From IMG/VR virus record IMGVR_UViG_2917886563_000002: a DNA stretch of 10,810 nucleotides; one strand, written 5' to 3'. The notes under the pieces were generated by a model. It was not told the DNA's origin. It made no database searches and worked only from the letters and a program-made list of their open reading frames with translations. A program made the translations under genes and the position numbers. The stretch's first letter is position 1, and each line of letters begins with the position of its first letter. Origin of the DNA: a virus. Taxonomy: Duplodnaviria; Heunggongvirae; Uroviricota; Caudoviricetes. Below, one piece after another: positions 1-10,810 of this stretch.

Positions 1-470
<470 letters not shown>

Positions 471-507
471 AATGTCACCTGTTTTGACTATGAGGTGATG
501 ATATCAC

Positions 508-543
508 CTCTATTCAGGTGGCCAAATTTACTATGCCACTACA
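508..543 (-). repeat. Terminal inverted repeat of the IS911-like element (outer end at 543)
   Basis: Lies upstream of the OrfA start; outer end TG (minus) / CA (plus) at 542-543; internal GAGGTGAT/ATCACCTC palindrome at 492-510. Confidence 0.7.
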
Positions 544-599
544 AATAAAACTATATTAGATTATTAATTAGATCATAATAATAATATTCTTTATATCTA

Positions 600-790
600 T
601 ATATATGATCTTTTGCCTTCCGGCGTTAGCTTCACTCCCTGGCAAGCAGCCTTACTCCGCTACCTTTGGGCTACGTTGGCTGGCCCGTTCCGCTCACACC
701 GAAAGCAAAGCGTTACTTTCTTCGTGTAACTATCGTGGCGGTAACGCCCACGAAGAAATACTATTGCGCTGTGCGCAGTAAGAGTAATCA
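600..790. other. GC-richer non-coding segment with nested inverted repeats, unassigned (candidate structured RNA or remnant of a disrupted locus)
   Basis: No ORF of useful length on either strand; local G+C clearly higher than the surrounding AT-rich DNA; contains the 10-bp arm inverted repeat at 713-762. Confidence 0.3.
713..762. repeat. Perfect 10-bp inverted repeat TTTCTTCGTG ... CACGAAGAAA with 30-nt spacer
   Basis: Read directly: tttcttcgtg at 713-722 and cacgaagaaa at 753-762. Confidence 0.7.
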
Positions 791-893
791 CCTAACCAAT
801 CATACTGATTGCTTACGTGTTAACTCTCTCTAACTCTTAATTACCCTCCTACATTTAATAACTCTCGTTATTCTCTGTAGTCGTGTAATTGTT

Positions 894-925
894 TTCGGTG
901 GAAAAGCCAGAGGCGACACCGAAAG
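894..925. repeat. 8-bp inverted repeat TTTCGGTG ... CACCGAAA, related in sequence to the 713-762 hairpin arms
   Basis: tttcggtg at 894-901 and caccgaaa at 918-925; the decamer ACACCGAAAG occurs at 696-705 and again at 916-925. Confidence 0.6.
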
Positions 926-934
926 AGAATTCTG

Positions 935-1000
935 ATCTTATTAATCTTATCTATCTTAGTTAATCTTCTTACTTATCTTACTTACTTTATCTACTTTATT
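935..1000 (+). repeat. Pyrimidine-rich tract with periodic ATCTTA hexamers (iteron-like array)
   Basis: ATCTTA at 935, 944, 953 and 975, with degenerate copies (ATCTTC, CTTACT, ATCTAC) between and after; spacing of 9 bp for the first three. Confidence 0.5.
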
Positions 1001-1507
1001 ATTAATAATAGCTTTATAAGCTCTGTGTAGCTCTCTGACGCAAGAAACAGCATTCAGGAAGGGAATCACCTTAGAAAAGGTGTTCTTTGCGTCATAATGT
1101 GTTTTATGAAGGATTCAGAGGTGTTTCATAACAGGAATGTATAGAGGATACTTTAATTAATTAAAAATAAGGGGTCTAAATGCTTCTCTAACAGCATTAA
1201 GCAGGGTAGGGAATGGAAACGCATTGTCTACATATAATAAGCTCACTACAGAGCTTTACAGAGCGTTTTTATAAAGTGACTCTCTATCTTATATCTACCA
1301 TTACCTTTTCATATACCTAACAAATACAAAATAAGCCCCTTAAATAAGCCTCTGGCGAGCTAAACAGCCATTACATAAGGGAATGTATTGCTTTTATCAA
1401 AATCTCGTTATAACGCGTTTTAGACAATAATGAAGAATGGCACTACACAGAAGAGCACGAGTTGCTCGTAAGTGCATGAAAAAGATCGATTTTTTTCGGA
1501 AGGGGTA

Positions 1508-1536
1508 TTGACAAACGTCTCTTTCTGTGCAATAAT
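1508..1536 (+). promoter_or_regulatory. Sigma70-type promoter candidate (TTGACA, 17-bp spacer, TGcAATAAT extended -10)
   Basis: ttgaca at 1508-1513; aataat at 1531-1536 preceded by tg at 1528-1529; AT-rich upstream; imperfect palindrome GCACGAGttgCTCGTaaGTGC at 1455-1475. Confidence 0.55.
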
Positions 1537-1590
1537 AGGAATTAGAGGGGACAGGAATAGATTCTTATCCTCTAAATAATTAAACCAATG

Positions 1591-1634
1591 CACCGCACTT
1601 TGAAGCCCAAGGCTTGCAAGGTGTTTTTTCTTTT
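1591..1634 (+). terminator. GC-rich stem-loop followed by T6CT4 run in the 5' leader of the first cargo gene (intrinsic terminator or attenuator candidate)
   Basis: CACCGCA...TGCaaGGTG pairing at 1591-1623 with inner AAGCC/GGCTT hairpin, then ttttttctttt at 1624-1634; lies between the 1508-1536 promoter and the SD at 1648-1654. Confidence 0.45.
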
Positions 1635-1661
1635 AACCAAATAGAATAAGGAGGCTAATTA

Positions 1662-1838
1662 ATGAAATATTTTACTCCACAGGATGTAGTAGAAGCCTGG
1701 AAACGTGGTGAGATCAACCGCTTTAAAGTAAGGATGTATAGAAACACCGCTCGCCGTTGTGGTTATCCAGAGCGTGAAAAATGTTTTGACGATGCACTGA
1801 AAATTATTGATGAACTGCGTAAAGCTGAGAAAGAATAA
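1662..1838 (+). CDS. Small basic hypothetical protein (58 aa), absent from the supplied ORF track
   Basis: ATG at 1662 preceded by AAGGAGG (1648-1654); hand translation MKYFTPQDVVEAWKRGEINRFKVRMYRNTARRCGYPEREKCFDDALKIIDELRKAEKE, stop TAA at 1836-1838. Confidence 0.6.
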   Translation: MKYFTPQDVVEAWKRGEINRFKVRMYRNTARRCGYPEREKCFDDALKIIDELRKAEKE

Positions 1839-1860
1839 TAGACAAGAGAAGGAGAAAACT

Positions 1861-2028
1861 ATGAGCGAAACTAAGAAACCAATTCCGCGCACTTACCTAC
1901 ACGTTGACCCTGAAATCTTCAAGGTTTTATTTGCTGAAGCCAAGAAAAGGCAAATTATGGTCAGTGATTTGATGTTAGAAATCATTACTGAAGCAGCAGA
2001 GAACATCAAACAAAAAAAGGGTAAGTGA
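1861..2028 (+). CDS. Small DNA-binding protein, ribbon-helix-helix-like (55 aa)
   Basis: ATG at 1861 with GAAGGAGA SD 5 nt upstream (the track's 1807 start lacks an SD). MSETKKPIPRTYLHVDPEIFKVLFAEAKKRQIMVSDLMLEIITEAAENIKQKKGK shows a polar/hydrophobic alternating strand (RTYLHV) followed by two helices, the RHH pattern. Confidence 0.6.
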   Translation: MSETKKPIPRTYLHVDPEIFKVLFAEAKKRQIMVSDLMLEIITEAAENIKQKKGK

Positions 2029-2079
2029 TCCTCATTCACTTTAGTAGCGCATTAAGCGTGATTTATAAGGAGATTTTTA

Positions 2080-2769
2080 ATGATTAATCAACTAACTTTT
2101 ACAAAACACTATGACACGTTTGATAATGTATCAAAGATTTATTCTGATAAATTCCCTCAAGGAAAAGATTTAGATCTATTACATATTGTGCTTTATTTTC
2201 GATTCCTTAGTTATCAGGAAAACAACCTTAATTGTTATGAAAGTCACGAAACATTAGCTAAGATTTTTAAGTCTTCAGCGTCAACAATTAAACGTAAGAT
2301 AAACGATCTTAAAGAGATGGGATTATTAGAAACATCCCCACATCCTGATCCGTATATTTCATCTTTGATTTACAATGCTCTCCCTCTCACAGATGCACAT
2401 ATTACTCCCCCAGGAGAATCATCACTCTCTGATCTTTCTGAGGCAGAAGAAGCACAGGAACAACCTAAAGGCCATAAACAGCCTTCTTTTGATGCTCTTG
2501 ATGATTGGGATACGCCTTTACCCTGGGAGATGGAAGAAACACCTGTTTCATCAAGTGAAAAGGTAGCTAATGATAATGAGGAGGATGTGTTAAAGAATTT
2601 TGCCTCTCTTATCATCCAGGAGAAACACACAAGAACAGGAGGAGCATCATTTATTGAGTTTGCAAATTCACTAGCTTGTAGATACGGGCTAAAACGACCA
2701 AATGGTATTGAGGCATATTTTGCTAAGAAACATCCCAAAGTATATGAAGACTTTGATATTCCATTTTAA
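2080..2769 (+). CDS. Hypothetical protein with N-terminal winged-HTH-like domain, acidic Pro-rich linker and C-terminal domain (229 aa)
   Basis: SD AAGGAG 7 nt upstream; N-terminus ...LHIVLYFRFLSYQENNLNCYESHETLAKIFKSSASTIKRKINDLKEMGLLE has the look of a wHTH of phage/plasmid replication or regulatory proteins. Confidence 0.8.
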   Translation: MINQLTFTKHYDTFDNVSKIYSDKFPQGKDLDLLHIVLYFRFLSYQENNLNCYESHETLAKIFKSSASTIKRKINDLKEMGLLETSPHPDPYISSLIYNALPLTDAHITPPGESSLSDLSEAEEAQEQPKGHKQPSFDALDDWDTPLPWEMEETPVSSSEKVANDNEEDVLKNFASLIIQEKHTRTGGASFIEFANSLACRYGLKRPNGIEAYFAKKHPKVYEDFDIPF

Positions 2770-2780
2770 TAAGGAGGGTT

Positions 2781-3059
2781 ATGATTCAATATTTAGTAAA
2801 AAATCAAGTAGACAGAATTCAGTGTAATGACACAGGAAAACGCATCTACGAGACACTTGCTTACCTCTATAAAGGAAAGCCAACACCGCTAAAATATAGC
2901 GATGTGTTACATCGAGCAGGTTGCTCTGAAGCTGGTTTAAAATTCTGGCTGAAACAGCTATCAGATTTCGGTGTTATAGAGATTAAAGAATTATCTTTCT
3001 CTACATTCAATCTCAAAAGATTAGATAAAGAAATAGACTTCATCTATTCCACTCTCTAA
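2781..3059 (+). CDS. Small winged-HTH-like protein (92 aa), paralogous in pattern to the N-domain of the 2080-2769 product
   Basis: SD AAGGAGGG immediately upstream; ...RIYETLAYLYKGKPTPLKYSDVLHRAGCSEAGLKFWLKQLSDFGVIEI. Confidence 0.7.
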   Translation: MIQYLVKNQVDRIQCNDTGKRIYETLAYLYKGKPTPLKYSDVLHRAGCSEAGLKFWLKQLSDFGVIEIKELSFSTFNLKRLDKEIDFIYSTL

Positions 3060-3100
3060 AATCTCTCTATGTAATTAAAATATAAAAGGAAAACATTATT

Positions 3101-3247
3101 ATGATAGTAGCTATGTATTGGTTATTGTTCTTTCTCACGTTAGAAGCATATTTCGGGGTGTTTTCCTTTAAAAGAAAAGGAAAAGTAAATGGCAAAAAGA
3201 AAAAAACAACGTTGTTAAGAAGATCGGTGATTCAGCTTCTCTTCTAA
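3101..3247 (+). CDS. Small predicted membrane peptide (48 aa): hydrophobic N-terminus, Lys/Arg-rich C-terminus; possibly the 5' part of a longer frameshifted gene
   Basis: ATG at 3101 with AAGGA about 10 nt upstream; hand translation MIVAMYWLLFFLTLEAYFGVFSFKRKGKVNGKKKKTTLLRRSVIQLLF; not in the ORF track. Confidence 0.4.
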   Translation: MIVAMYWLLFFLTLEAYFGVFSFKRKGKVNGKKKKTTLLRRSVIQLLF

Positions 3248-3360
3248 GTAAACCTAAATCTATTCTAAGACGCAAAGACTTTAAAGAGCTAGTTACGCTC
3301 ACCAAGCAAAATAGCGCCCCTGGCGAATGGAAAACAGAGATCATAGAACATTCTCCCTCT

Positions 3361-3600
3361 GTGCCTTGTGGAGATGAATTTAACGCCTTACAAGAAATCT
3401 TATCTTCAACACCTGGCGTATTCTGGAAACCCAGGAAAAGAAAAGAGTATATCGTTGATAGCTCTGATTTACGCAAATACCAGATTTTAGGATTTGAAGA
3501 TTATAATCACTACGTTGGTTATCTCGCTACCAATGGCCTAAATAATTTAGTTCCAGAATTCCAGATTTTAGATAATGCTGATCACTATGGAGACTTTTAA
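3361..3600 (+). CDS. Hypothetical protein fragment; this frame is open from 3172 with no ATG and is probably the downstream part of a gene starting at 3101
   Basis: Track ORF starts at GTG 3361 with no SD; the same frame is stop-free back to 3172 and overlaps the 3101-3247 ORF across an A-run at 3194-3206. Confidence 0.35.
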   Translation: MPCGDEFNALQEILSSTPGVFWKPRKRKEYIVDSSDLRKYQILGFEDYNHYVGYLATNGLNNLVPEFQILDNADHYGDF

Positions 3601-3601
3601 T

Positions 3602-3940
3602 ATGAACAAAAACACGTATGACACAATTTACTCACTAATTAATTATTATGAGGATGATTACCTCCTGCCTTTAAACCGCGCTGAACTTGAAGCATACAAA
3701 GAAAACACGCCAGCGGCACTAAATGAGGCGTTTAAACACTGGGATTTAGCTGTGAATGCCTTTGAGCACCTCTCTAAGCGTGTAGAGATGCTCTGTAAGC
3801 GCGAAAACGCATATCTGACAGCCGATCAGATATGGGAGCTATCAAACTGGATAGAAGATATTGAATCTGATGTTCGCTATGTAGGGGATGGCCTTGTTGA
3901 ACTCGCACAACGCTTAGGCGCTGCTATCACAGAAGAATAA
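3602..3940 (+). CDS. Acidic hypothetical protein (112 aa from ATG 3602; the track's 3575 start is less likely)
   Basis: GGAG at 3590-3593 sits 8 nt before ATG 3602; product MNKNTYDTIYSLINYYEDDYLLPLNRAELEAYKENTPAALNEAFKHWDLAVNAFEHLSK... is strongly net acidic by hand count (about 22 D/E against 10 K/R). Confidence 0.65.
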   Translation: MNKNTYDTIYSLINYYEDDYLLPLNRAELEAYKENTPAALNEAFKHWDLAVNAFEHLSKRVEMLCKRENAYLTADQIWELSNWIEDIESDVRYVGDGLVELAQRLGAAITEE

Positions 3941-3969
3941 AAAAAGCAACAAAAAAGTTGTAAAATATC

Positions 3970-3998
3970 TTGACATTTCATATATTGTATGTTAATAT
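3970..3998 (+). promoter_or_regulatory. Sigma70-type promoter candidate (TTGACA, 17-bp spacer, TGtTAATAT)
   Basis: ttgaca at 3970-3975; taatat at 3993-3998 preceded by tg at 3990-3991. Confidence 0.5.
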
Positions 3999-4132
3999 AA
4001 TTATATAGGGGTGATTATTTTTCCTTTATTGGTTCGATATTAAAAATTCTTCTTGTCGTTAAAGGGGAGTAAAATCTCCGCTCCCCGCTTCTCCTCCTTA
4101 AGTAATACTGTGTCATACCTCTTTTTTCCTTT

Positions 4133-4162
4133 GTTATGCATACATCTTGGAGTGTGCATAAC
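4133..4162. repeat. Inverted repeat GTTATGCA ... TGCATAAC (operator-like), with a third GTTATGCA copy at 4211-4218
   Basis: gttatgca at 4133-4140, tgcataac at 4155-4162, gttatgca at 4211-4218; adjacent palindrome CAACTTaaAAGTTG at 4217-4230. Confidence 0.6.
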
Positions 4163-4176
4163 ATAGGGTAATTACA

Positions 4177-4207
4177 AAGGCGGCTTTAAATGCTGCCTTT
4201 TATTTTG
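4177..4207 (+). terminator. Stem-loop followed by T-rich run (intrinsic terminator or attenuator candidate)
   Basis: AAGGCGGC (4177-4184) pairs with GCTGCCTT (4192-4199) with one G-T wobble, loop tttaaat, then ttattttg. Confidence 0.45.
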
Positions 4208-4268
4208 CCCGTTATGCAACTTAAAAGTTGTATTTCTTACTTTAAACAAGGTAACAAGGTTTATATAA

Positions 4269-4481
4269 ATGTTGTTCTTAAATGATAAAGAGCAAATCAT
4301 CAAGTATAAAGATGAAATGCTGCGAATTACTCCACAAATTACCGAAATGGTAGCTAAATACGCTGGGTGTTCTGTCGAGGAAGTAGAAAGATGTGTTGAA
4401 AAATATTTTTCTCCTTCTTCTCCGTCTACACCTTCCCTTAATGAATTAATCAAATTAAAAGCTAAGGAGATTACTAAATGA
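4269..4481 (+). CDS. Small acidic hypothetical protein (70 aa)
   Basis: Track ORF; weak SD (AAGG about 10 nt upstream); its stop overlaps the next start (ATGA at 4478-4481), suggesting translational coupling. Confidence 0.55.
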   Translation: MLFLNDKEQIIKYKDEMLRITPQITEMVAKYAGCSVEEVERCVEKYFSPSSPSTPSLNELIKLKAKEITK

Positions 4482-4840
4482 TTATTGATTTAGACACTCT
4501 TTTTCCAGTTCGAAAGACTTTCACAGATATTGTAAGTTACTGTACTGATCCGTTTGCTTCTGTAGAAAGCAAGGTTTTTGCTTCTCTTCCTGCTGATGTT
4601 GAATGCGGAGACTTGATCACCAGCACGGGCGCTAAATATGAATCAGGAGATGATATCTATGTTGTTATGAGTGAATTTGTAACGGCAGGAGAAAACAAGC
4701 CTGTAGATGTGCTACGTAGCAATGCTGGCCTTGTGTGCATTAAAGCTGATGCGCTGAATGCTGTAAGTGAAGCAGCAAAAACAGCATTAATTAAAAAAGG
4801 CTTCCAGCTTGAAGGCTTTAACACGGTTTTCACTTCTTAA
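4478..4840 (+). CDS. Hypothetical protein (120 aa)
   Basis: SD AAGGAGA at 4463-4469; overlapping stop-start with the upstream gene; no family recognised. Confidence 0.7.
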   Translation: MIIDLDTLFPVRKTFTDIVSYCTDPFASVESKVFASLPADVECGDLITSTGAKYESGDDIYVVMSEFVTAGENKPVDVLRSNAGLVCIKADALNAVSEAAKTALIKKGFQLEGFNTVFTS

Positions 4841-4858
4841 TAAAAGGAATAATAATAA

Positions 4859-5887
4859 ATGATTCTAGGTAATGATTACGTTGATTTAGCTCCGCTTTTC
4901 CAGACACACAGCACGCGTAACTTTCTGCTCTCTACCCTCGACTTCACTGATCCGGTGGGCGTTAGTTCTCATAAAGTAGCTGTTTCCCAGCTTGTCGAAA
5001 GCAACGAATCTCTCTTTAACAAAGAGACAAGCCGTTTTAGTTCTGAACACAATGTTACTAAGCGAGAACAAGGTAAAGAATGGCTGATTGAAATCCCGTA
5101 TTTTCTTCGTGAGGATGTGATCCGTCCTTCTGATGTTCAAGGCAAGCGTAAGCCTGGCACTGATTTTCAGGAAACACTTACTGATATCTATGCTGACTAT
5201 GTTGCTAAACACCACGTAGCGTATCAGCGTACAAAAGAGAGCGTGTTGGCGGCTTCTTTGTTCTCTGGCAAAACTTACACGCCTAAAACTGACGATGTGT
5301 TAATTGAGTGGGGCAAGCTGTTTAACGTATCAGCTATGAAAGCCACTGTTAACGCCTCCAGCACTGACACCACGAAGATTTTTAAAGAATTTGATCAGAT
5401 TGCTACTGACATTATCGAAAAAGCACAAAGCCAGGCGGCTGCTGTAGAGCGTATTGTTGTTTTCTGTAAGCCGGAAGCCTTCTCTGCAATTCGATTCTCT
5501 GCTGGTATGGCAAACGCATTCCAGTATGTAAGCCCACTGGAAGAGGGGAACGTTGTGTATCAGCGTCGTGACCTGCTACCAGGAGTGACAGCGTTCACTA
5601 TTCCAGGAACTAACATTGATGTTGTTAAACTGGTAGATCCGCTACACCTGGCACATATGACCGCAGACGCTGTAGCTGTGCCTAAATTCGCTAAAGGCTC
5701 TAACGTATATCAGAACATTTACGGGGCTGCTTCCAGCACTTTTGAACTGATTAATGCCGCTCCTGCTGAGGTGTATAGCTATAGCTATGAATCTTCTCGT
5801 GGTGATGCTGTTAACGTTGTTACAGAGAATAGCCAGATGGTGGTAAACCACGGCGTTGGCTTCTCCGTTCAAATCACTGTTAAATAA
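4859..5887 (+). CDS. Hypothetical protein (342 aa); candidate structural (capsid-like) protein, unverified
   Basis: SD AAGGA upstream; long ORF with protein-like composition and no signal peptide; followed by the strongest terminator in the window; paired with a 120-aa upstream gene. Confidence 0.8.
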   Translation: MILGNDYVDLAPLFQTHSTRNFLLSTLDFTDPVGVSSHKVAVSQLVESNESLFNKETSRFSSEHNVTKREQGKEWLIEIPYFLREDVIRPSDVQGKRKPGTDFQETLTDIYADYVAKHHVAYQRTKESVLAASLFSGKTYTPKTDDVLIEWGKLFNVSAMKATVNASSTDTTKIFKEFDQIATDIIEKAQSQAAAVERIVVFCKPEAFSAIRFSAGMANAFQYVSPLEEGNVVYQRRDLLPGVTAFTIPGTNIDVVKLVDPLHLAHMTADAVAVPKFAKGSNVYQNIYGAASSTFELINAAPAEVYSYSYESSRGDAVNVVTENSQMVVNHGVGFSVQITVK

Positions 5888-5905
5888 TATTTTAACGTGT
5901 AATAG

Positions 5906-5945
5906 AGGCGTGGCGTGTATTCACGCTTCGCCTTTTTTTATTTAT
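5906..5945 (+). terminator. Rho-independent terminator
   Basis: AGGCGTGGCGTG (5906-5917), loop tatt, CACGCTTCGCCT (5922-5933), then ttttttatttatttttt. Confidence 0.75.
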
Positions 5946-5973
5946 TTTTTAAGTTTTGAGAGGTGATTAAAAT

Positions 5974-6177
5974 ATGGAAGTGATTTTGAAATCAAAAAAT
6001 GGTGTACACGTACATTTAGATGCTAATGATTCTAGAGGCTTGTTAAATCTGAAATATCTATGTTCTCTTTTAGATGTTCCCTATGAAGGCGTAAAAGCCC
6101 GTATGTTCAGATTAAACGAGAGTATTGATCAGGCTCTACACCATTTCTTAAGCAAAGAAGGTGGTAAAAATGATTAA
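5974..6177 (+). CDS. Small hypothetical protein (67 aa)
   Basis: SD GAGGTGA 7 nt upstream of ATG 5974; stop 6 nt before the SD of the next gene. Confidence 0.6.
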   Translation: MEVILKSKNGVHVHLDANDSRGLLNLKYLCSLLDVPYEGVKARMFRLNESIDQALHHFLSKEGGKND

Positions 6178-6191
6178 TAAGGGGATTTTAA

Positions 6192-8024
6192 ATGTTAGAA
6201 ATTAACACTTCCAAGATTAAAAATACAGTAACATTTACTGTAGATAAAGACAGCTTGAAAAAAGCGAAAGACTCTATTACAGGCTTAAAGGAATTCGCAG
6301 AGAACATCAAGCCAGCTAAATTAAGATTTGATAGTGTCACTAAAGGCTATAAGAAAGCACAAAGCGAAGTAGACAAGATTGCTCAACAGAAAGCTAAAAC
6401 AGAAAAGCAAAATCAAAGAGCACAAGCTGCCGCAGCAAGAGCACAGGCAAGGCAACAGCAACAAATAGCAGCACGTAAGGAGAAGGCAAACTTAAAACTG
6501 TTAGACGTTGGATCAAGCATTAGTGCATTGCACCGCCTCTCTGTAGCGGAACAATACAAAGCTATTGCACAGGCTAGAGAGATAGCGAAACAATATGAGC
6601 AAGGGGCTATCTCGCTTGCACGTATGAATAGCCAGATGAAACGCTTACAACAGCAACAACGTAAGATTAATGGCAATAGAAAAACTCAATTAGCCCCCGT
6701 TAAGGGAGGAGGATCAGGGAATGCCGCCACTATGGGCGCTCTGTTATTTGGAGGCGCTACGGCTGCTGCTGGCGTGATGGCTGTTAGTAAAACCTCTGAA
6801 TTTATGGCTAACAGCTTTGCGAATGCTGAAACACAAGGCGAGCTAATTCAACGTGCAAGGCTTGGCGGTGTAGACGTTAACCAGATGTATAATATTACAG
6901 AATGGGCCTATAGAAACGGGATCGACTCTATGATGGGTGATCAAGGGGCTAGGAAATACCTGGATCAGATGAAAGATGTTAGGGAACGTGCCGCAAAATC
7001 CTATAGTGAAGCTGAATTAGTGAAAGATAAGAAAACAGGAAAATCTGAATGGAAAGGCGGTGATAACGCTATTAATGAACTTCTAAACATCGGTGTTATT
7101 AACAAAAGCGACCTTAAAAAATTTGCTGATAATCCAGCCGGATTAATTTCTAAGGCTGTTAATGGAATGATGAAAAAAGGGTTTTCAGACTCCCAAATTG
7201 GACAACGTTTAGAAGACCTGGGCGATGATTTGATGCTTACGTCAAAATATTGGCAACGTTCCGTTAAAGATGTACAAGAAAGCATTAACCAGCAAAAAGC
7301 CGCCGGACAATGGCTAACAGAAACACAGCAAGACTCTATTGTTAAATTCAGAGAACTAAACAGACAGCTTTCACAGCTTTCTGATGCAAGACAAGTAGCA
7401 TTCGTAGACGGCTTTATGAAATCTCTTGATCCAAAAGTAACGGAAGAGTTTATGAAAAACCTTTCTAATCTCACTCCGTATTTTACGAAGCTGGGAGAAG
7501 CTACAGGAAGTCTCTTTGAAGCCATTATGAAGATTGTAAACTGGTTTAATCGTAATGATGATAAGACAGATGCTATTCAGAAAAATATGGGTGATGCACC
7601 GCCACTATCTAACGATGGAATGAAACAGAATCTTTCTAACCTCGTTCCTGACCAATATAAAGGCGCTGGCACTGCAACAACTACACCTGATAATAGTCGT
7701 TCTCTCTTTAACACGATTAAGGGATTGCTTTTTGATGATAATTCTTCTGTGTCAGATGTAAAAATGTCAGTCAATGAAGCACCGATAACCAATCTCAAAC
7801 AGGGTGCTTTAAATAATCTTGCAATGACAACTCCGGCTTATAATTTATCTCCTGTGTTTAATCTGAATCCAACGTTTGAAGTGGTAACAGAGGTTCCGCT
7901 TACTATTAATTCTGACACGTCCAGATTAAGTGATTATGTGGATTTTACAGCGAGAGCAAGTCGGGATATCTTCTTGAAATCATTAACATTAACCAGCTTA
8001 TCAGGACAATCTAACGGCGGGTAA
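6192..8024 (+). CDS. Large hypothetical protein (610 aa): Gln/Ala-rich coiled-coil-like N-region, Gly/Ala hydrophobic segment, Asn/Ser/Thr-rich C-terminus; tape-measure-like or scaffold-like, unverified
   Basis: SD AAGGGGA upstream; segments ...KTEKQNQRAQAAAARAQARQQQQIAARKEKANLK... and ...GGGSGNAATMGALLFGGATAAAGVMAVS...; no signal peptide. Confidence 0.8.
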   Translation: MLEINTSKIKNTVTFTVDKDSLKKAKDSITGLKEFAENIKPAKLRFDSVTKGYKKAQSEVDKIAQQKAKTEKQNQRAQAAAARAQARQQQQIAARKEKANLKLLDVGSSISALHRLSVAEQYKAIAQAREIAKQYEQGAISLARMNSQMKRLQQQQRKINGNRKTQLAPVKGGGSGNAATMGALLFGGATAAAGVMAVSKTSEFMANSFANAETQGELIQRARLGGVDVNQMYNITEWAYRNGIDSMMGDQGARKYLDQMKDVRERAAKSYSEAELVKDKKTGKSEWKGGDNAINELLNIGVINKSDLKKFADNPAGLISKAVNGMMKKGFSDSQIGQRLEDLGDDLMLTSKYWQRSVKDVQESINQQKAAGQWLTETQQDSIVKFRELNRQLSQLSDARQVAFVDGFMKSLDPKVTEEFMKNLSNLTPYFTKLGEATGSLFEAIMKIVNWFNRNDDKTDAIQKNMGDAPPLSNDGMKQNLSNLVPDQYKGAGTATTTPDNSRSLFNTIKGLLFDDNSSVSDVKMSVNEAPITNLKQGALNNLAMTTPAYNLSPVFNLNPTFEVVTEVPLTINSDTSRLSDYVDFTARASRDIFLKSLTLTSLSGQSNGG

Positions 8025-8057
8025 TTCCCGCCATAACATTACAAGGAAATTATTATT

Positions 8058-8768
8058 ATGGCGACGGCGGGAATTTTAACCATACGTGCAGCAAATACTC
8101 CAGAACAACACGTTCAGGCTGTTTACAAAGCAGAACAAGATATAAACTCTACAAAAAACGAAAATAGCAAAGCTAATAAAACAAAAGGAGAAAATGGATT
8201 TGCTATTGTCACCAGTGGGCTGGCATCTTCTGTAAGTGACGTTTATGAAAATTATATGGCGTTATCCTTTGACAGTGTTGACGATGTGAACGTGAGACGT
8301 TCGGCAGATGTCACAAGCTATCCTGTAGAAAATGGAGCTAATGTATCGGATCACGTTCAAGTTAAGAATAATAAGTTTGCTCTTAAAGGGCGTATCTCTG
8401 AAACACCGATTAAAAGCGATCCTGGCTTGTTAAAGAGTGCAGGGGTGAACGGGAACAGAAGATCATTAGCTATCGACTACCTGAATCAGATTATGGACAG
8501 TAGACAGCCTTTTCTTCTTGTTACAGAAAATAAAACTTTTGAGAACGTTGTTTTAACAGGCATCGAATACACAGAAGAGGCAAGCGAATCTCTGGTATTT
8601 GATTTGGAATTTGAGCAAATCAGATTAGTTTCTTATGGCACTGTAAACACTGTAGCTATCAAAACACAGCCATCTAAGAACATCGGGGCTAATATGAAAA
8701 AACGTGTTAACACTGAAAAAACAAGTGAAGGTGAAGACACTATTACTCCTGCCTTTAAGCAGGAATAG
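8058..8768 (+). CDS. Hypothetical protein (236 aa); possible virion or tail-associated protein, unverified
   Basis: SD AAGGA 10 nt upstream; immediately follows the 610-aa gene; a stem-loop follows the stop. Confidence 0.75.
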   Translation: MATAGILTIRAANTPEQHVQAVYKAEQDINSTKNENSKANKTKGENGFAIVTSGLASSVSDVYENYMALSFDSVDDVNVRRSADVTSYPVENGANVSDHVQVKNNKFALKGRISETPIKSDPGLLKSAGVNGNRRSLAIDYLNQIMDSRQPFLLVTENKTFENVVLTGIEYTEEASESLVFDLEFEQIRLVSYGTVNTVAIKTQPSKNIGANMKKRVNTEKTSEGEDTITPAFKQE

Positions 8769-8809
8769 CCGTAAACGCCTCTAAAACGCTCTGTAACGAT
8801 GTAATTATA

Positions 8810-8842
8810 AAAGAGGCTACCAATCTATGTTGAAGCCTCTTT
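8810..8842. terminator. Stem-loop between convergent genes (bidirectional terminator candidate)
   Basis: AAAGAGGCT (8810-8818) and AGCCTCTTT (8834-8842), 15-nt loop; T/A-rich flanks on both strands; lies between the 8058-8768 gene and the minus-strand recombinase. Confidence 0.4.
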
Positions 8843-8849
8843 ATTGCGT

Positions 8850-9848
8850 CTATGGCGTTGTTTTACGCCTTAAATTTGATTTTTTATTGATTGATAAGCC
8901 TTTCTCTATTTCAGGGTAGCGTAGAAGCTCAATATATTTTTTAAGCTCTACTGGAGAAGCTGCATTCTTGCTATATGTGCGGAATGTCTCTGTATTGCCG
9001 CGTGTATGGCCCAGGAGAAGGGCGATCCTGTCTTCTGGAATTTGATTTCGATCAAGAAGCTGTGCTACTCCGTGTCTCAGAGAATGAAACACCTTCCTTT
9101 CTGTTCCCTTTTCCCCTAAAGCCTTTCGTTTAGCTCTTGTAAATCTCTGCGTGTGCCACGTGGAACGTTTACCATCAGCACGCTCTGTAATGCTGGCGTG
9201 ATAGAACAAAAAGCCATTGTGAGGCTTTTCACGAAGAGATAACACCAACGGAGTGATAAGGCTATGTACAGGCACAAGACGTGCCGCAGCTTTCGTTTTT
9301 CCCTGTGTGATTTCAAAACACAGCACACCTTCGATCTCTTTCACATCGTCTATTGTGAGACTTGCTATCTCATTGATCCGCATACCTGTATATAAACCGA
9401 TAAGACACAAAGCCGTCATTTCTTTGTTTTCTGCTGAATTACCGGAAAATACTTGCAACACCTGCAATAGCTCTTTGTTAGAAAATGCCTCATAGCTCTC
9501 TCTACTTTGTGCCACATCAAGCCTATGCCCTCGCCAGGGGGAGAGCGCCCTTTCTGGCGCATCGTGGTAACGTGATGAAGCTAACTCCCATAGCTGGGCC
9601 ATTGGGCTGATATAATTTGCAATTGATTGTTGTGAAAGGGTTTTTTGCATGCGTTCTATCCAGCCTGTAACAGTGGTGCGGCTCACATCTTGCAATGCAA
9701 TATCAGGCTTTTTACGGTAGGAGAGAAACATCTCTACCGCTTTTCTTGCCTTAGCTAAAGTGGCTGGCTTCTTCTTCGTGCTGTTAATTGTCAGGTAGAT
9801 TTCAAGAATTTTAAGCAATGACGGACACGAAGACGCTGTATCTTGCAT
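8850..9848 (-). CDS. Tyrosine site-specific recombinase (integrase), 332 aa
   Basis: Catalytic-domain signature in order: Arg in ...LYTGMRINEIASL..., H-x-x-R in ...FHSLRHGVAQLL..., ...LLGHTRG..., and Tyr in ...TFRTYSK...; N-terminal region ...LEIYLTINSTKKKPATLAKARKAVEMFLSY... resembles a core-binding domain. Confidence 0.9.
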   Translation of the reverse strand: MQDTASSCPSLLKILEIYLTINSTKKKPATLAKARKAVEMFLSYRKKPDIALQDVSRTTVTGWIERMQKTLSQQSIANYISPMAQLWELASSRYHDAPERALSPWRGHRLDVAQSRESYEAFSNKELLQVLQVFSGNSAENKEMTALCLIGLYTGMRINEIASLTIDDVKEIEGVLCFEITQGKTKAAARLVPVHSLITPLVLSLREKPHNGFLFYHASITERADGKRSTWHTQRFTRAKRKALGEKGTERKVFHSLRHGVAQLLDRNQIPEDRIALLLGHTRGNTETFRTYSKNAASPVELKKYIELLRYPEIEKGLSINKKSNLRRKTTP

Positions 9849-9925
9849 TCTGGTAGCTGTTTTGGCGTATTTAGCCTTACTTCGTAACAGTTCCAGCGTG
9901 TTCTCTATTGTGCTGTTTACAGGAG

Positions 9926-10810
9926 TGATCTTGACCCGCTATCTCCGGACCGCTTTTGTATCTTAAGTTAACGATGCCCGCTGCCGCCGGTATTCCCTCG
10001 GAGAGTAATATCCCAGCGCGCTGTGCGGGTGGTTTTCATTGTAATGCGTGAACGCTGCTGCAAGGTTTTGCAGGGCTGTTCTCACATCCGGTTTTGGCAT
10101 GAACGCGATATAGTCTTCTTTCATCGTCTTCACGAACCGTTCGGCCATGCCATTACTCTGCGGACTGCTCACCGCTGTTGTACAGGGTTCAAGATTCAGC
10201 TCTCTGGCGAACCTCCGCGTTTCATGCGCAGTATACGCTGAACCGTTATCCGTCAACCACTGCACTGGTGTGTCCGGCAACCTGTCGCCGAAGCGCTTTT
10301 CCACCGACCTCAGCATCACATCCTGTACGGTCGAACTGTCGTAGCCTCCCGTGCTCGCTGCCCAGTCTATGGCCTCTCTGTCGCAGCAGTCCAGCGCGAA
10401 CGTCACCCGCAGTTTTTCACCGTTGTCGCAGCCGAACTCGAAGCCGTCTGAACACCAGCGCATATTGCTTTCTGCCACCGCGATTTTTCCCTTGTGTTCA
10501 CGCTTCGGTCGCTCTGGTTTGTCATGCAACAACAACAGGTTATGCTCGCTCATTATCCTGTAAAGTCGTTTGGCGTTCACCGGTGGCTCTCCCTCAGTGC
10601 GACGTTGCTTGCGCAGGATGCCCCACACGCGTCGATAACCATAACTCGGCATATCGCTGATGATATCGAGGATATCCGTCAGTATTTCAGCGTCTGCTTC
10701 GTCATTACGCCGGTTACAGCGCCTGTCCTGCCAGTCGGCAGAACGGTTAACTCGCAGTGACAGCTGCGCACGCGACACGCCCATGGTGCGGCTGACCAGG
10801 GCTATTCCCC
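9926..10810 (-). mobile_element. IS3-family insertion sequence, IS2-like, partial (OrfA side runs off the right window edge)
   Basis: Minus-strand end reads ...GGCGGCAGCGGGCATCGTTAACTTAAGATACAAAAGCGGTCCGGAGATAGCGGGTCAAGATCA, the same pattern as the IS2 right end as recalled; G+C rises at 9926; encodes an IS2 OrfB-like transposase. Confidence 0.88.
9963..10784 (-). CDS. IS3-family (IS2 group) transposase OrfB, DDE catalytic domain
   Basis: ...[13 protein letters not shown]...RWCSDGFEF...[13 protein letters not shown]...[11 protein letters not shown]...[11 protein letters not shown]...[12 protein letters not shown]; D, D and E motif residues present; frame continues upstream past 10784 toward the window edge. 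Confidence 0.92.

Follow-up and report, generated by a model that had tools for sequence, protein, structure and literature searches.

A conserved promoter, structured leader and terminator hairpin ahead of the early operon of a phage-related island in Escherichia coli

What is the role of a terminator hairpin that stands between a strong promoter and the first gene of the operon behind it? The question is raised by the IMG/VR virus record IMGVR_UViG_2917886563_000002 (Caudoviricetes), a stretch of 10,810 nucleotides (nt) which we analysed over its full length and refer to as the window. Positions 538-9923 of the window make up a ~9.4-kb element with 95% identity to DNA adjoining thrW in Escherichia coli APEC O1 and many other strains. 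Near its left end, a sigma-70 promoter (P1), a leader of about 90 nt and a stem-loop with a U-tract (t1) precede the genes for a 58-amino-acid (aa) protein, a ribbon-helix-helix (RHH) protein and a winged helix-turn-helix (wHTH) protein resembling replication initiators. This cassette is an unannotated and strongly conserved RNA element that occurs once per element. We read positions 1508-1636, at about even chances, as a terminator gate heading the early operon of an integrative satellite-like element of ~10-13 kb, and we propose that, in an island resembling a satellite of virulent phages, the cassette controls access to the operon for regulation and replication.

Promoter, terminator and their conservation

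P1 has the build of an extended -10 sigma-70 promoter, with TTGACA at 1508-1513, a 17-bp spacer, TG at 1528-1529 and AATAAT at 1531-1536, exactly where a first-pass annotation of the sequence had placed it. It is the top sigma-70 match on either strand of the window (11/12 plus the TG extension), and a match as good as this with TG was reached on either strand in 2% of dinucleotide-preserving shuffles of the whole window, while promoter-like sites as a whole are no more numerous in the window than in the shuffles. The same window scan found no promoter-like site between the T-tract and gene 1, so the transcripts of the 58-aa, RHH and wHTH/Rep-like genes must all pass t1. It is because of this obligatory passage that the cassette is read as a terminator gate.

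The hairpin t1 has the structure of an intrinsic terminator, a stable G+C-containing stem with the U-tract directly after it (Table 1). The stem has a free energy (dG) of -15.5 kcal/mol (z -2.4) and was missed by a simple terminator scan because of its bulge. The GC-rich stem-loop and T6CT4 run that had been described upstream of the Shine-Dalgarno sequence of gene 1 are thus present, and they are conserved. The hairpin does lie downstream of the predicted transcription start, at ~51 nt after ~1544 and not at the ~55 nt given earlier, and 13 nt separate its U-tract from the ribosome-binding site of gene 1.

We matched the cassette region 1380-1700 in 662 of 5,426 complete E. coli genomes at 67-97% identity, which is ~12% or about one genome in eight. 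Fourteen copies, picked at even steps down the ranking of these BLAST-matched genomes, were aligned, and promoter and terminator are intact in all 14. Mean pairwise identity is highest in the U-tract (0.90), followed by the t1 stem-loop (0.85) and the segment 1380-1440 (0.83), and is 0.72-0.77 in the promoter spacer, the 5' hairpin, the linker, the ribosome-binding region, the start of gene 1 and the flanks. Both the t1 stem (GCACUUUGAAGCC...GGCUUGCAAGGUG) and its tract (UUUUCUUUUA) are nearly invariant in this alignment. A 47-nt query made from t1 hit 709 places in 643 genomes, all of them unannotated; these are approximately the genomes that carry the cassette, which marks the hairpin as specific to the element.

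From viral and metagenome sequences, a pattern scan contributed a further 25 and 74 loci, respectively, a biased sample since the pattern demanded parts of the promoter and of the terminator. Pooled with the copies already obtained, they make 116 loci and 44 unique cassettes, including three chance matches. Among the unique cassettes there are about 12 promoter spacer/-10 sequences in five main versions and seven linkers, and a single t1 stem sequence. The spacing of P1 is constant, and its TG is kept in the three commonest versions (TGcAATAAT, TGtAATAAT and TGgTAAAGT) and absent in two rarer ones. In 37 distinct copies the t1 helix is paired in 99.8% of cells, 9 of its 13 pairs never vary and none covaries. 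Loops of CAA, GUCA, CAAGA, CAACAA and GUCGUCA occur among the unique cassettes, and a paired deletion that changes AAGCC/GGCUU to AGCC/GGCU in 13 loci retains the helix. A covariance model found the cassette exactly once in each element and had no hit in the genome of muut, a virulent phage of the Stephanstirmvirinae whose relation to the island is described below. The invariance of the t1 stem without a competing helix hints at sequence-specific recognition or at homogenisation by recombination.

In all P1 versions the motif TAG(R)GGG lies 6-10 nt past the -10 (1541-1550 in the window), around the predicted start site. The motif stands at the same distance from the -10 at a second promoter of the island, P2 (4003-4011), and at the P2-like promoter of a divergent element (L042 9884-9893), and it could be a common start-site operator or a common 5' RNA motif. 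A/T tracts upstream of the -35 are present in all copies with varying centres, and we infer that they are UP-element-like. In E. coli CUWW11 (L044 1431-2399) an IS903B copy lies within the P1 region and the leader is intact from about +5, which makes this locus a natural promoter knock-out.

Table 1. Features of the cassette and of the surrounding island, in window coordinates
Feature	Position	Strand	Basis or detail
Conserved 34-nt repeat, about -85 to -117: palindrome CGTTATAACG and one 10-bp unit GCGTTTTAGA (1415-1424)	1391-1424	+	
Overlapping palindromes GAGCA-N5-TGCTC and ACGAG-N3-CTCGT, 5-bp arms	1453-1469	.	Window scan
A5-GATCGA-T7 tracts, ~12-30 bp upstream of the -35	1479-1496	+	Sequence read directly
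-35 hexamer TTGACA of P1	1508-1513	+	TTGACAAA invariant across copies
Extended -10 TGcAATAAT of P1	1528-1536	+	Window promoter scan
Predicted transcription start, 7-9 nt past the -10, in conserved TTAGAGGGG	1543-1545	+	Promoter geometry
5'-terminal two-tier stem-loop; outer tier AGGGGA/UCCUCU, inner tier AGGAA/UUCUU	1546-1573	+	RNAfold
A/U-rich single-stranded linker AAAUAAUUAAACCAAUGCACC; UCUAAAUAAU.AAA almost invariant	1574-1594	+	Fold and alignment of copies
Intrinsic-terminator stem-loop t1: 13 bp, one bulged G, CAA loop	1595-1624	+	RNAfold
U-tract T6CT4 of t1, TTTTTTCTTTT	1624-1634	+	Directly after the t1 stem
Shine-Dalgarno AAGGAGG (1648-1654) and gene 1 (ATG 1662)	1648-1838	+	Sequence
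Gene 2, 55-aa RHH protein, candidate regulator of P1	1861-2028	+	AlphaFold (AF2) model
Gene 3, 229-aa wHTH protein (HTH_36), replication-initiator-like	2080-2769	+	Domain match
P2 unit: TTGACA-17-TAATAT with TG (3970-3998), structured leader, terminator-like hairpin 4176-4200 with T-rich tail (t2)	3970-4210	+	
Third terminator-like hairpin (t3) and T7 run	5905-5940	+	dG -21.2 kcal/mol, z -5.3
Right arm of the inverted repeat, counterpart of 1391-1424	8780-8813	-	34 nt, 76% complementary

The leader RNA

When 1543-1640 was folded, much as the first-pass annotation had suggested for 1544-1640, the terminator formed and was accompanied by a stem-loop at the 5' end which that annotation had not mentioned; the whole fold has a dG of -26.1 kcal/mol (z -2.4). 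For the 5' hairpin there are at least four sequences, which differ strongly from each other and yet all take on the same two-tier shape. Across the copies 88% of its cells are paired and 4 of its 10 pairs have changed on both sides, values that were reached by 14/500 and 1/500 shuffles. Shifting the partners by 1-3 columns leaves no more than 58% of cells paired, versus 95% for the real structure. No alternative antiterminator helix was found in four leader versions, in which the terminator has a predicted probability of 0.98-0.999 in the folding ensemble; with the 3' arm of the terminator blocked, its 5' arm is left without a partner.

The leader RNA has no match in Rfam at E<=1, and this includes riboswitches, the C4/IsrK immunity RNAs and the annotated families of small RNAs (sRNAs). 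Nothing significant emerged when a homologous leader was sought in phages, with blastn against 50,697 phage records and with nhmmer and a covariance model against the whole muut genome; the best nhmmer match in muut (E = 0.2) is to the upstream repeat of the island and not to the leader. In three elements, a crude duplex scan that compared the leader with 7.4 kb of mRNA downstream yielded long gappy duplexes only, and a conserved seed-type site was not among them.

Further promoter and terminator units

The arrangement seen at P1 recurs within the island. The P2 unit, which is found in 307 genomes, precedes an operon that starts at 4269 and includes the capsid gene, and its leader has a predicted fold of -62 kcal/mol (z -5.6). 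A third hairpin, t3, is located between the stop codon of the capsid gene (5887) and the genes for a 67-aa, a tape-measure-like and a Dit-like protein. A divergent subfamily of the element (L042) has a gene-free leader of ~900 nt and a strong terminator followed by the late operon (9853-9882, 10745-10798). The recurrence of the promoter-leader-terminator-operon layout before the capsid operon and in the divergent subfamily supports a gate at the early operon.

A proposed terminator gate and its alternatives

The gate takes as its starting point conserved sequence elements at defined positions, conserved RNA folds and the absence of a built-in alternative structure. We suggest that P1, a strong sigma-70 promoter, would start transcription near 1544 and that the first ~90 nt would form the 5' stem-loop, the A/U-rich single strand and the intrinsic terminator. 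In the resting state most polymerases would get no further than 1634, and the short RNA that they release would have a protective hairpin at its 5' end. Expression of the operon would then depend solely on leak or on factor-dependent antitermination, for which a helper phage or a protein of the element itself might be the trigger. Several points weigh against this proposal. The start site, the efficiency of termination and the read-through are all predicted; 99 of the 116 pooled loci came from a pattern that demanded terminator parts; and the invariance of the t1 stem means that covariation lends no support to the terminator helix. In addition, the proteins of the element match no Q, N or other antiterminator family, and muut lacks a homologous leader. 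The architecture of the RNA is equally that of an Hfq-type sRNA, and t1 may just damp expression without being regulated.

It is possible, though on balance improbable, that the cassette is a stand-alone gene for an Hfq- or ProQ-type sRNA of ~85-92 nt which acts in trans or in cis on mRNAs of the element, the host or a helper phage, with the terminator doubling as an insulator. The leader has the structural features of such an RNA in textbook form (a 5' stem-loop, the single-stranded UCUAAAUAAU.AAA beside the terminator and a long U tail), its promoter is strong and looks constitutive, and the invariance of the stem exceeds what a plain terminator needs. However, the duplex scan revealed no conserved seed-type site, no Rfam family including C4/IsrK was matched, and, given that the operon lacks a separate promoter, the terminator must do more than close an sRNA gene. 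Somewhat less probable, and in our view unlikely, is regulation at the promoter alone, in which the RHH protein, the wHTH protein or both would repress P1 at nearby candidate operators and t1 would be an unregulated partial stop that only lowers and insulates expression of the operon. An Arc/CopG-like RHH gene in second place is usual in autoregulated operons of phages and plasmids, there are conserved repeats upstream of P1 (1391-1424, with the 10-bp unit GCGTTTTAGA in 1-3 tandem copies in different elements), and TAG(R)GGG is found at the start sites of both P1 and P2. Against this, the RHH variant does not track the promoter-spacer version across loci, and the extreme conservation of t1 together with terminators before both operons in two divergent subfamilies suggests that the stop itself is selected.

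The two remaining explanations are very improbable. The hairpin might be a site in the DNA for recombination, replication or packaging whose likeness to a terminator is incidental, as its stem is conserved in sequence without compensatory substitutions, a Rep-like wHTH protein is encoded nearby, and intact copies carry a serine recombinase and a long gene-free upstream region. This fits poorly with a T-tract that always comes next and on the transcribed strand, with a hairpin that is always 50-55 nt past a conserved promoter and 13-20 nt before a ribosome-binding site, and with the lack of a second hairpin copy in the element; loops that vary while the stem pairing is kept, the paired deletion included, fit an RNA hairpin. 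Hardly credible is a riboswitch or a ribosome-mediated (leader-peptide) attenuator, for which the position in a 5' leader with a terminator ahead of the first gene would be suitable, as would an 18-codon open reading frame (ATG 1588 to TAG 1644) across the terminator. Only the 28-nt hairpin of variable sequence and the 21-nt linker (~50 nt) precede the terminator, and we rejected a riboswitch in view of the missing aptamer, Rfam match and mutually exclusive folds. The reading frame has no Shine-Dalgarno sequence, it differs between leader versions (a 5-nt indel follows ATGCAC) and its stop shifts with the length of the T-tract, and it is therefore not a leader peptide; an attenuator of the trp type was rejected since neither a ribosome-binding site nor a conserved frame is present. 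Of the classes proposed for this leader in the first-pass annotation, an attenuator-type gate and an sRNA of ~90 nt thus fit the layout, and a riboswitch-like leader does not.

With regard to the terminator gate, a wider proposal can be made, which we consider rather improbable as a whole. The leader would be the sensing switch of undescribed, Escherichia-restricted satellites that parasitise phAPEC8-like and rV5-like myoviruses, and a factor from the helper or from the element would drive read-through of t1 (1595-1634), t2 (4176-4210) and t3 (5905-5940). Such a factor would recognise the invariant t1 hairpin, or else TAG(R)GGG or the 5' hairpin at the start of the transcript, and the RHH gene shared with muut would be part of a cross-talk between phage and satellite. 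If phage infection does induce read-through, the cassette would represent a compact and easily testable form of termination-based latency in a satellite, and could be used as a reporter of helper infection. Should it prove to be no more than a leaky attenuator or an sRNA gene, it would be an ordinary regulatory part that is still useful for annotation and as a marker of the element family. Its interest comes mainly from its location, as it heads the early operon of an undescribed island that is widespread and akin to virulent phages.

Comparison with known systems

Functionally, the cassette most resembles the PR'-tR'/Q system of phage lambda and the termination-based immunity of satellite P4, and features that would assign it to either of them were not found. 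In lambda, a 6S RNA of 194 nt is terminated ahead of the operon behind PR', and antitermination by Q gives read-through. The island shares with it a strong sigma-70 promoter, a short terminated RNA (here by prediction), an operon without another promoter and further terminators among the structural genes. It differs in that no Q-family protein was found among the island's proteins, and in the absence of a consistent pause element, a -10-like TAGATT in the initially transcribed region (~+16) being present in some leader versions only. In addition, the island leader is ~90 nt long versus 194 nt and shares no sequence with phage records, and the gate would control an early regulatory and replication operon rather than late genes.

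In P4 immunity, transcription terminates prematurely in the PLE leader by way of the CI RNA, to which the C4 RNA of P1 and P7 is related. Likenesses to the island are the satellite type of the element, a replication operon silenced by termination in its leader, a constitutive promoter and a leader that yields a small stable RNA, the last three of which would hold for the island by prediction. In contrast to P4, the island leader has no match to the Rfam C4/IsrK models, the crude scan showed no conserved complementarity between leader and downstream sequence, and its stop is a self-sufficient intrinsic terminator, whereas termination in P4 needs RNA-RNA pairing.

Two further systems are worth comparing. 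The Hfq-dependent sRNAs of enterobacteria have a 5' stem-loop, an A/U-rich strand by the terminator, a U tail of at least 6 and a length of ~90 nt. The island leader has the same build and length, but it is a sense RNA placed directly before an operon that depends on read-through, and the duplex scan found no target for it. The put RNA of phage HK022 consists of two specific stem-loops just past the early promoters, which make the polymerase resistant to terminators. Like put, the island leader has structured RNA at the extreme 5' end of an early transcript and upstream of terminators; unlike put, this is one two-tier hairpin with a non-conserved sequence, and it is followed at once by a terminator with a predicted probability of >0.98.

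Candidate operators and upstream repeats

The first-pass annotation had also pointed to a palindrome at 1455-1475 as a possible operator for the RHH or wHTH proteins. Palindromes are indeed present there (1453-1469), but they hinge on a 9-bp deletion that is found in 2 of 34 distinct sequences, and most copies retain just AGCA-N5-TGCT. Because the palindrome is not conserved, we rejected it as an operator. The conserved repeat at 1391-1424 is a better candidate binding site for the RHH or the wHTH protein, and the conserved TAG(R)GGG at the predicted start site is another. The half-sites of the 10-bp unit of the repeat, TTATCAAAA and TTGTCTAAAA, resemble the hix/gix half-sites of invertases, although their spacing is wrong and no inverted block was seen.

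The repeat and its right arm at 8780-8813 form an inverted repeat that flanks a gene block of 7.4 kb. The right arm is conserved ~7.3 kb downstream of P1 in six related loci, and partial extra copies of TTACAGAGCGT occur at 1253-1270 and 9180-9206. Just upstream of the right arm, a promoter-like site on the minus strand (8833-8804, TCAACA-18-TATAAT, 10/12) points leftwards into the Dit-like gene and may drive an antisense transcript of the late operon. In muut, CGTTAGAATGCGTTACAGGAGGTTTTAGG at 51,865-51,939 (L046 1865-1939, minus strand) weakly resembles the island's upstream repeat CGTTAGAACGCGTTTTAGAG, with the non-significant nhmmer E-value of 0.2 mentioned above; it is located downstream of a terminator-like hairpin that follows muut_85 and overlaps the 3' end of muut_84.

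Between 538 and 1507 of the window (L042 5847-7369), the DNA that extends for ~1-1.7 kb upstream of the promoter holds no annotated gene in 14 RefSeq copies. It is 50-75% conserved and includes an array of CTTATCT/ACTTA repeats with periods of 9, 13 and 26, which is tandem-like at 935-1002. A six-frame check of this region was uninformative, and an Rfam scan (E<=1) of the window and of an intact copy of the island returned only thrW. The region could be a replication origin or the site of other non-coding RNAs.

The island and its distribution

The downstream genes bear out the RHH and wHTH proteins that had been predicted from the sequence. Gene 1 (1662-1838) encodes a basic 58-aa protein of three helices. 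For the 55-aa product of gene 2, an AlphaFold model has an RHH fold with a predicted local distance difference test (pLDDT) score of 90, and Arc, CopA, MazE and CopG are the structures that it matches best; an HTH_36 domain was found in the 229-aa product of gene 3. The plus strand continues with several small proteins, a capsid protein of the lambda gpE type and the tape-measure-like (610 aa) and Dit-like proteins. These last three are the only recognisable virion genes of the island, which has no terminase, portal or lysis gene and thus an incomplete virion and lysis set. PADLOC and NCBIfam gave nothing informative for the proteins of the element.

At thrW, the island carries a tyrosine integrase on the minus strand. 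Intact copies are ~13 kb long and have a serine recombinase and ~1.7 kb without an annotated gene upstream of the early operon. In the divergent element L042, the island extends over 3970-16764. In the window, fragments of two different IS3-family insertion sequences (ISs) bracket the element (window 1-537 and 9925-10810), with orfA at 159-470 and orfB at 9963-10784, both on the minus strand. The left-hand fragment cuts the gene-free region, and the right-hand one truncates the integrase (8850-9848), which has 332 aa here versus 425 aa in APEC O1. We rejected a circular form of the window, closed through a single IS, as its two ends join in 0 of 5,426 genomes.

Carriers of the cassette include avian pathogenic E. 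coli (APEC), O26:H11 and O104:H4 strains. E. coli O157 Sakai lacks the element at thrW, and the sRNA maps of enterohaemorrhagic E. coli published for Sakai are therefore of no help. No relatives were found outside Escherichia: a capsid-based scan of species-representative genomes led to one Escherichia locus, and homologues of gene 1 occur in Escherichia only. Our literature search by taxon, keyword, protein accession and hairpin sequence found no description of the element or its RNA.

The tail-related genes of the island are akin to those of the virulent phAPEC8-like (Stephanstirmvirinae) and rV5-like phages. Compared with the proteins of muut, the Dit-like protein is 62% identical (to muut_230), the tape-measure-like protein 28-55% and the RHH protein 100% (to muut_153). 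On this evidence the island looks like an uncharacterised phage satellite or a defective relative of phAPEC8-like or rV5-like phages, and the putative helper relation is drawn from homology. At the DNA level, the RHH gene with its ribosome-binding site and 3' intergenic region (1849-2087) is 99.6% identical to muut MN850573.1 81,027-81,265 (L041 2501-2739). The near-identity of the two genes implies that a lytic phage and the island probably swapped a regulator recently. In phage inny (L040 2501-3125) the RHH stretch is 97% identical, and another similar stretch is located inside the adjacent wHTH gene.

Three independent metagenome contigs of 12,600, 12,583 and 12,593 bp (L048, L079 and L114) are almost exactly as long as the whole island. 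They have no terminal overlap and give no sign of circularity. Two of them are from food samples, and one of the three has 84x coverage.

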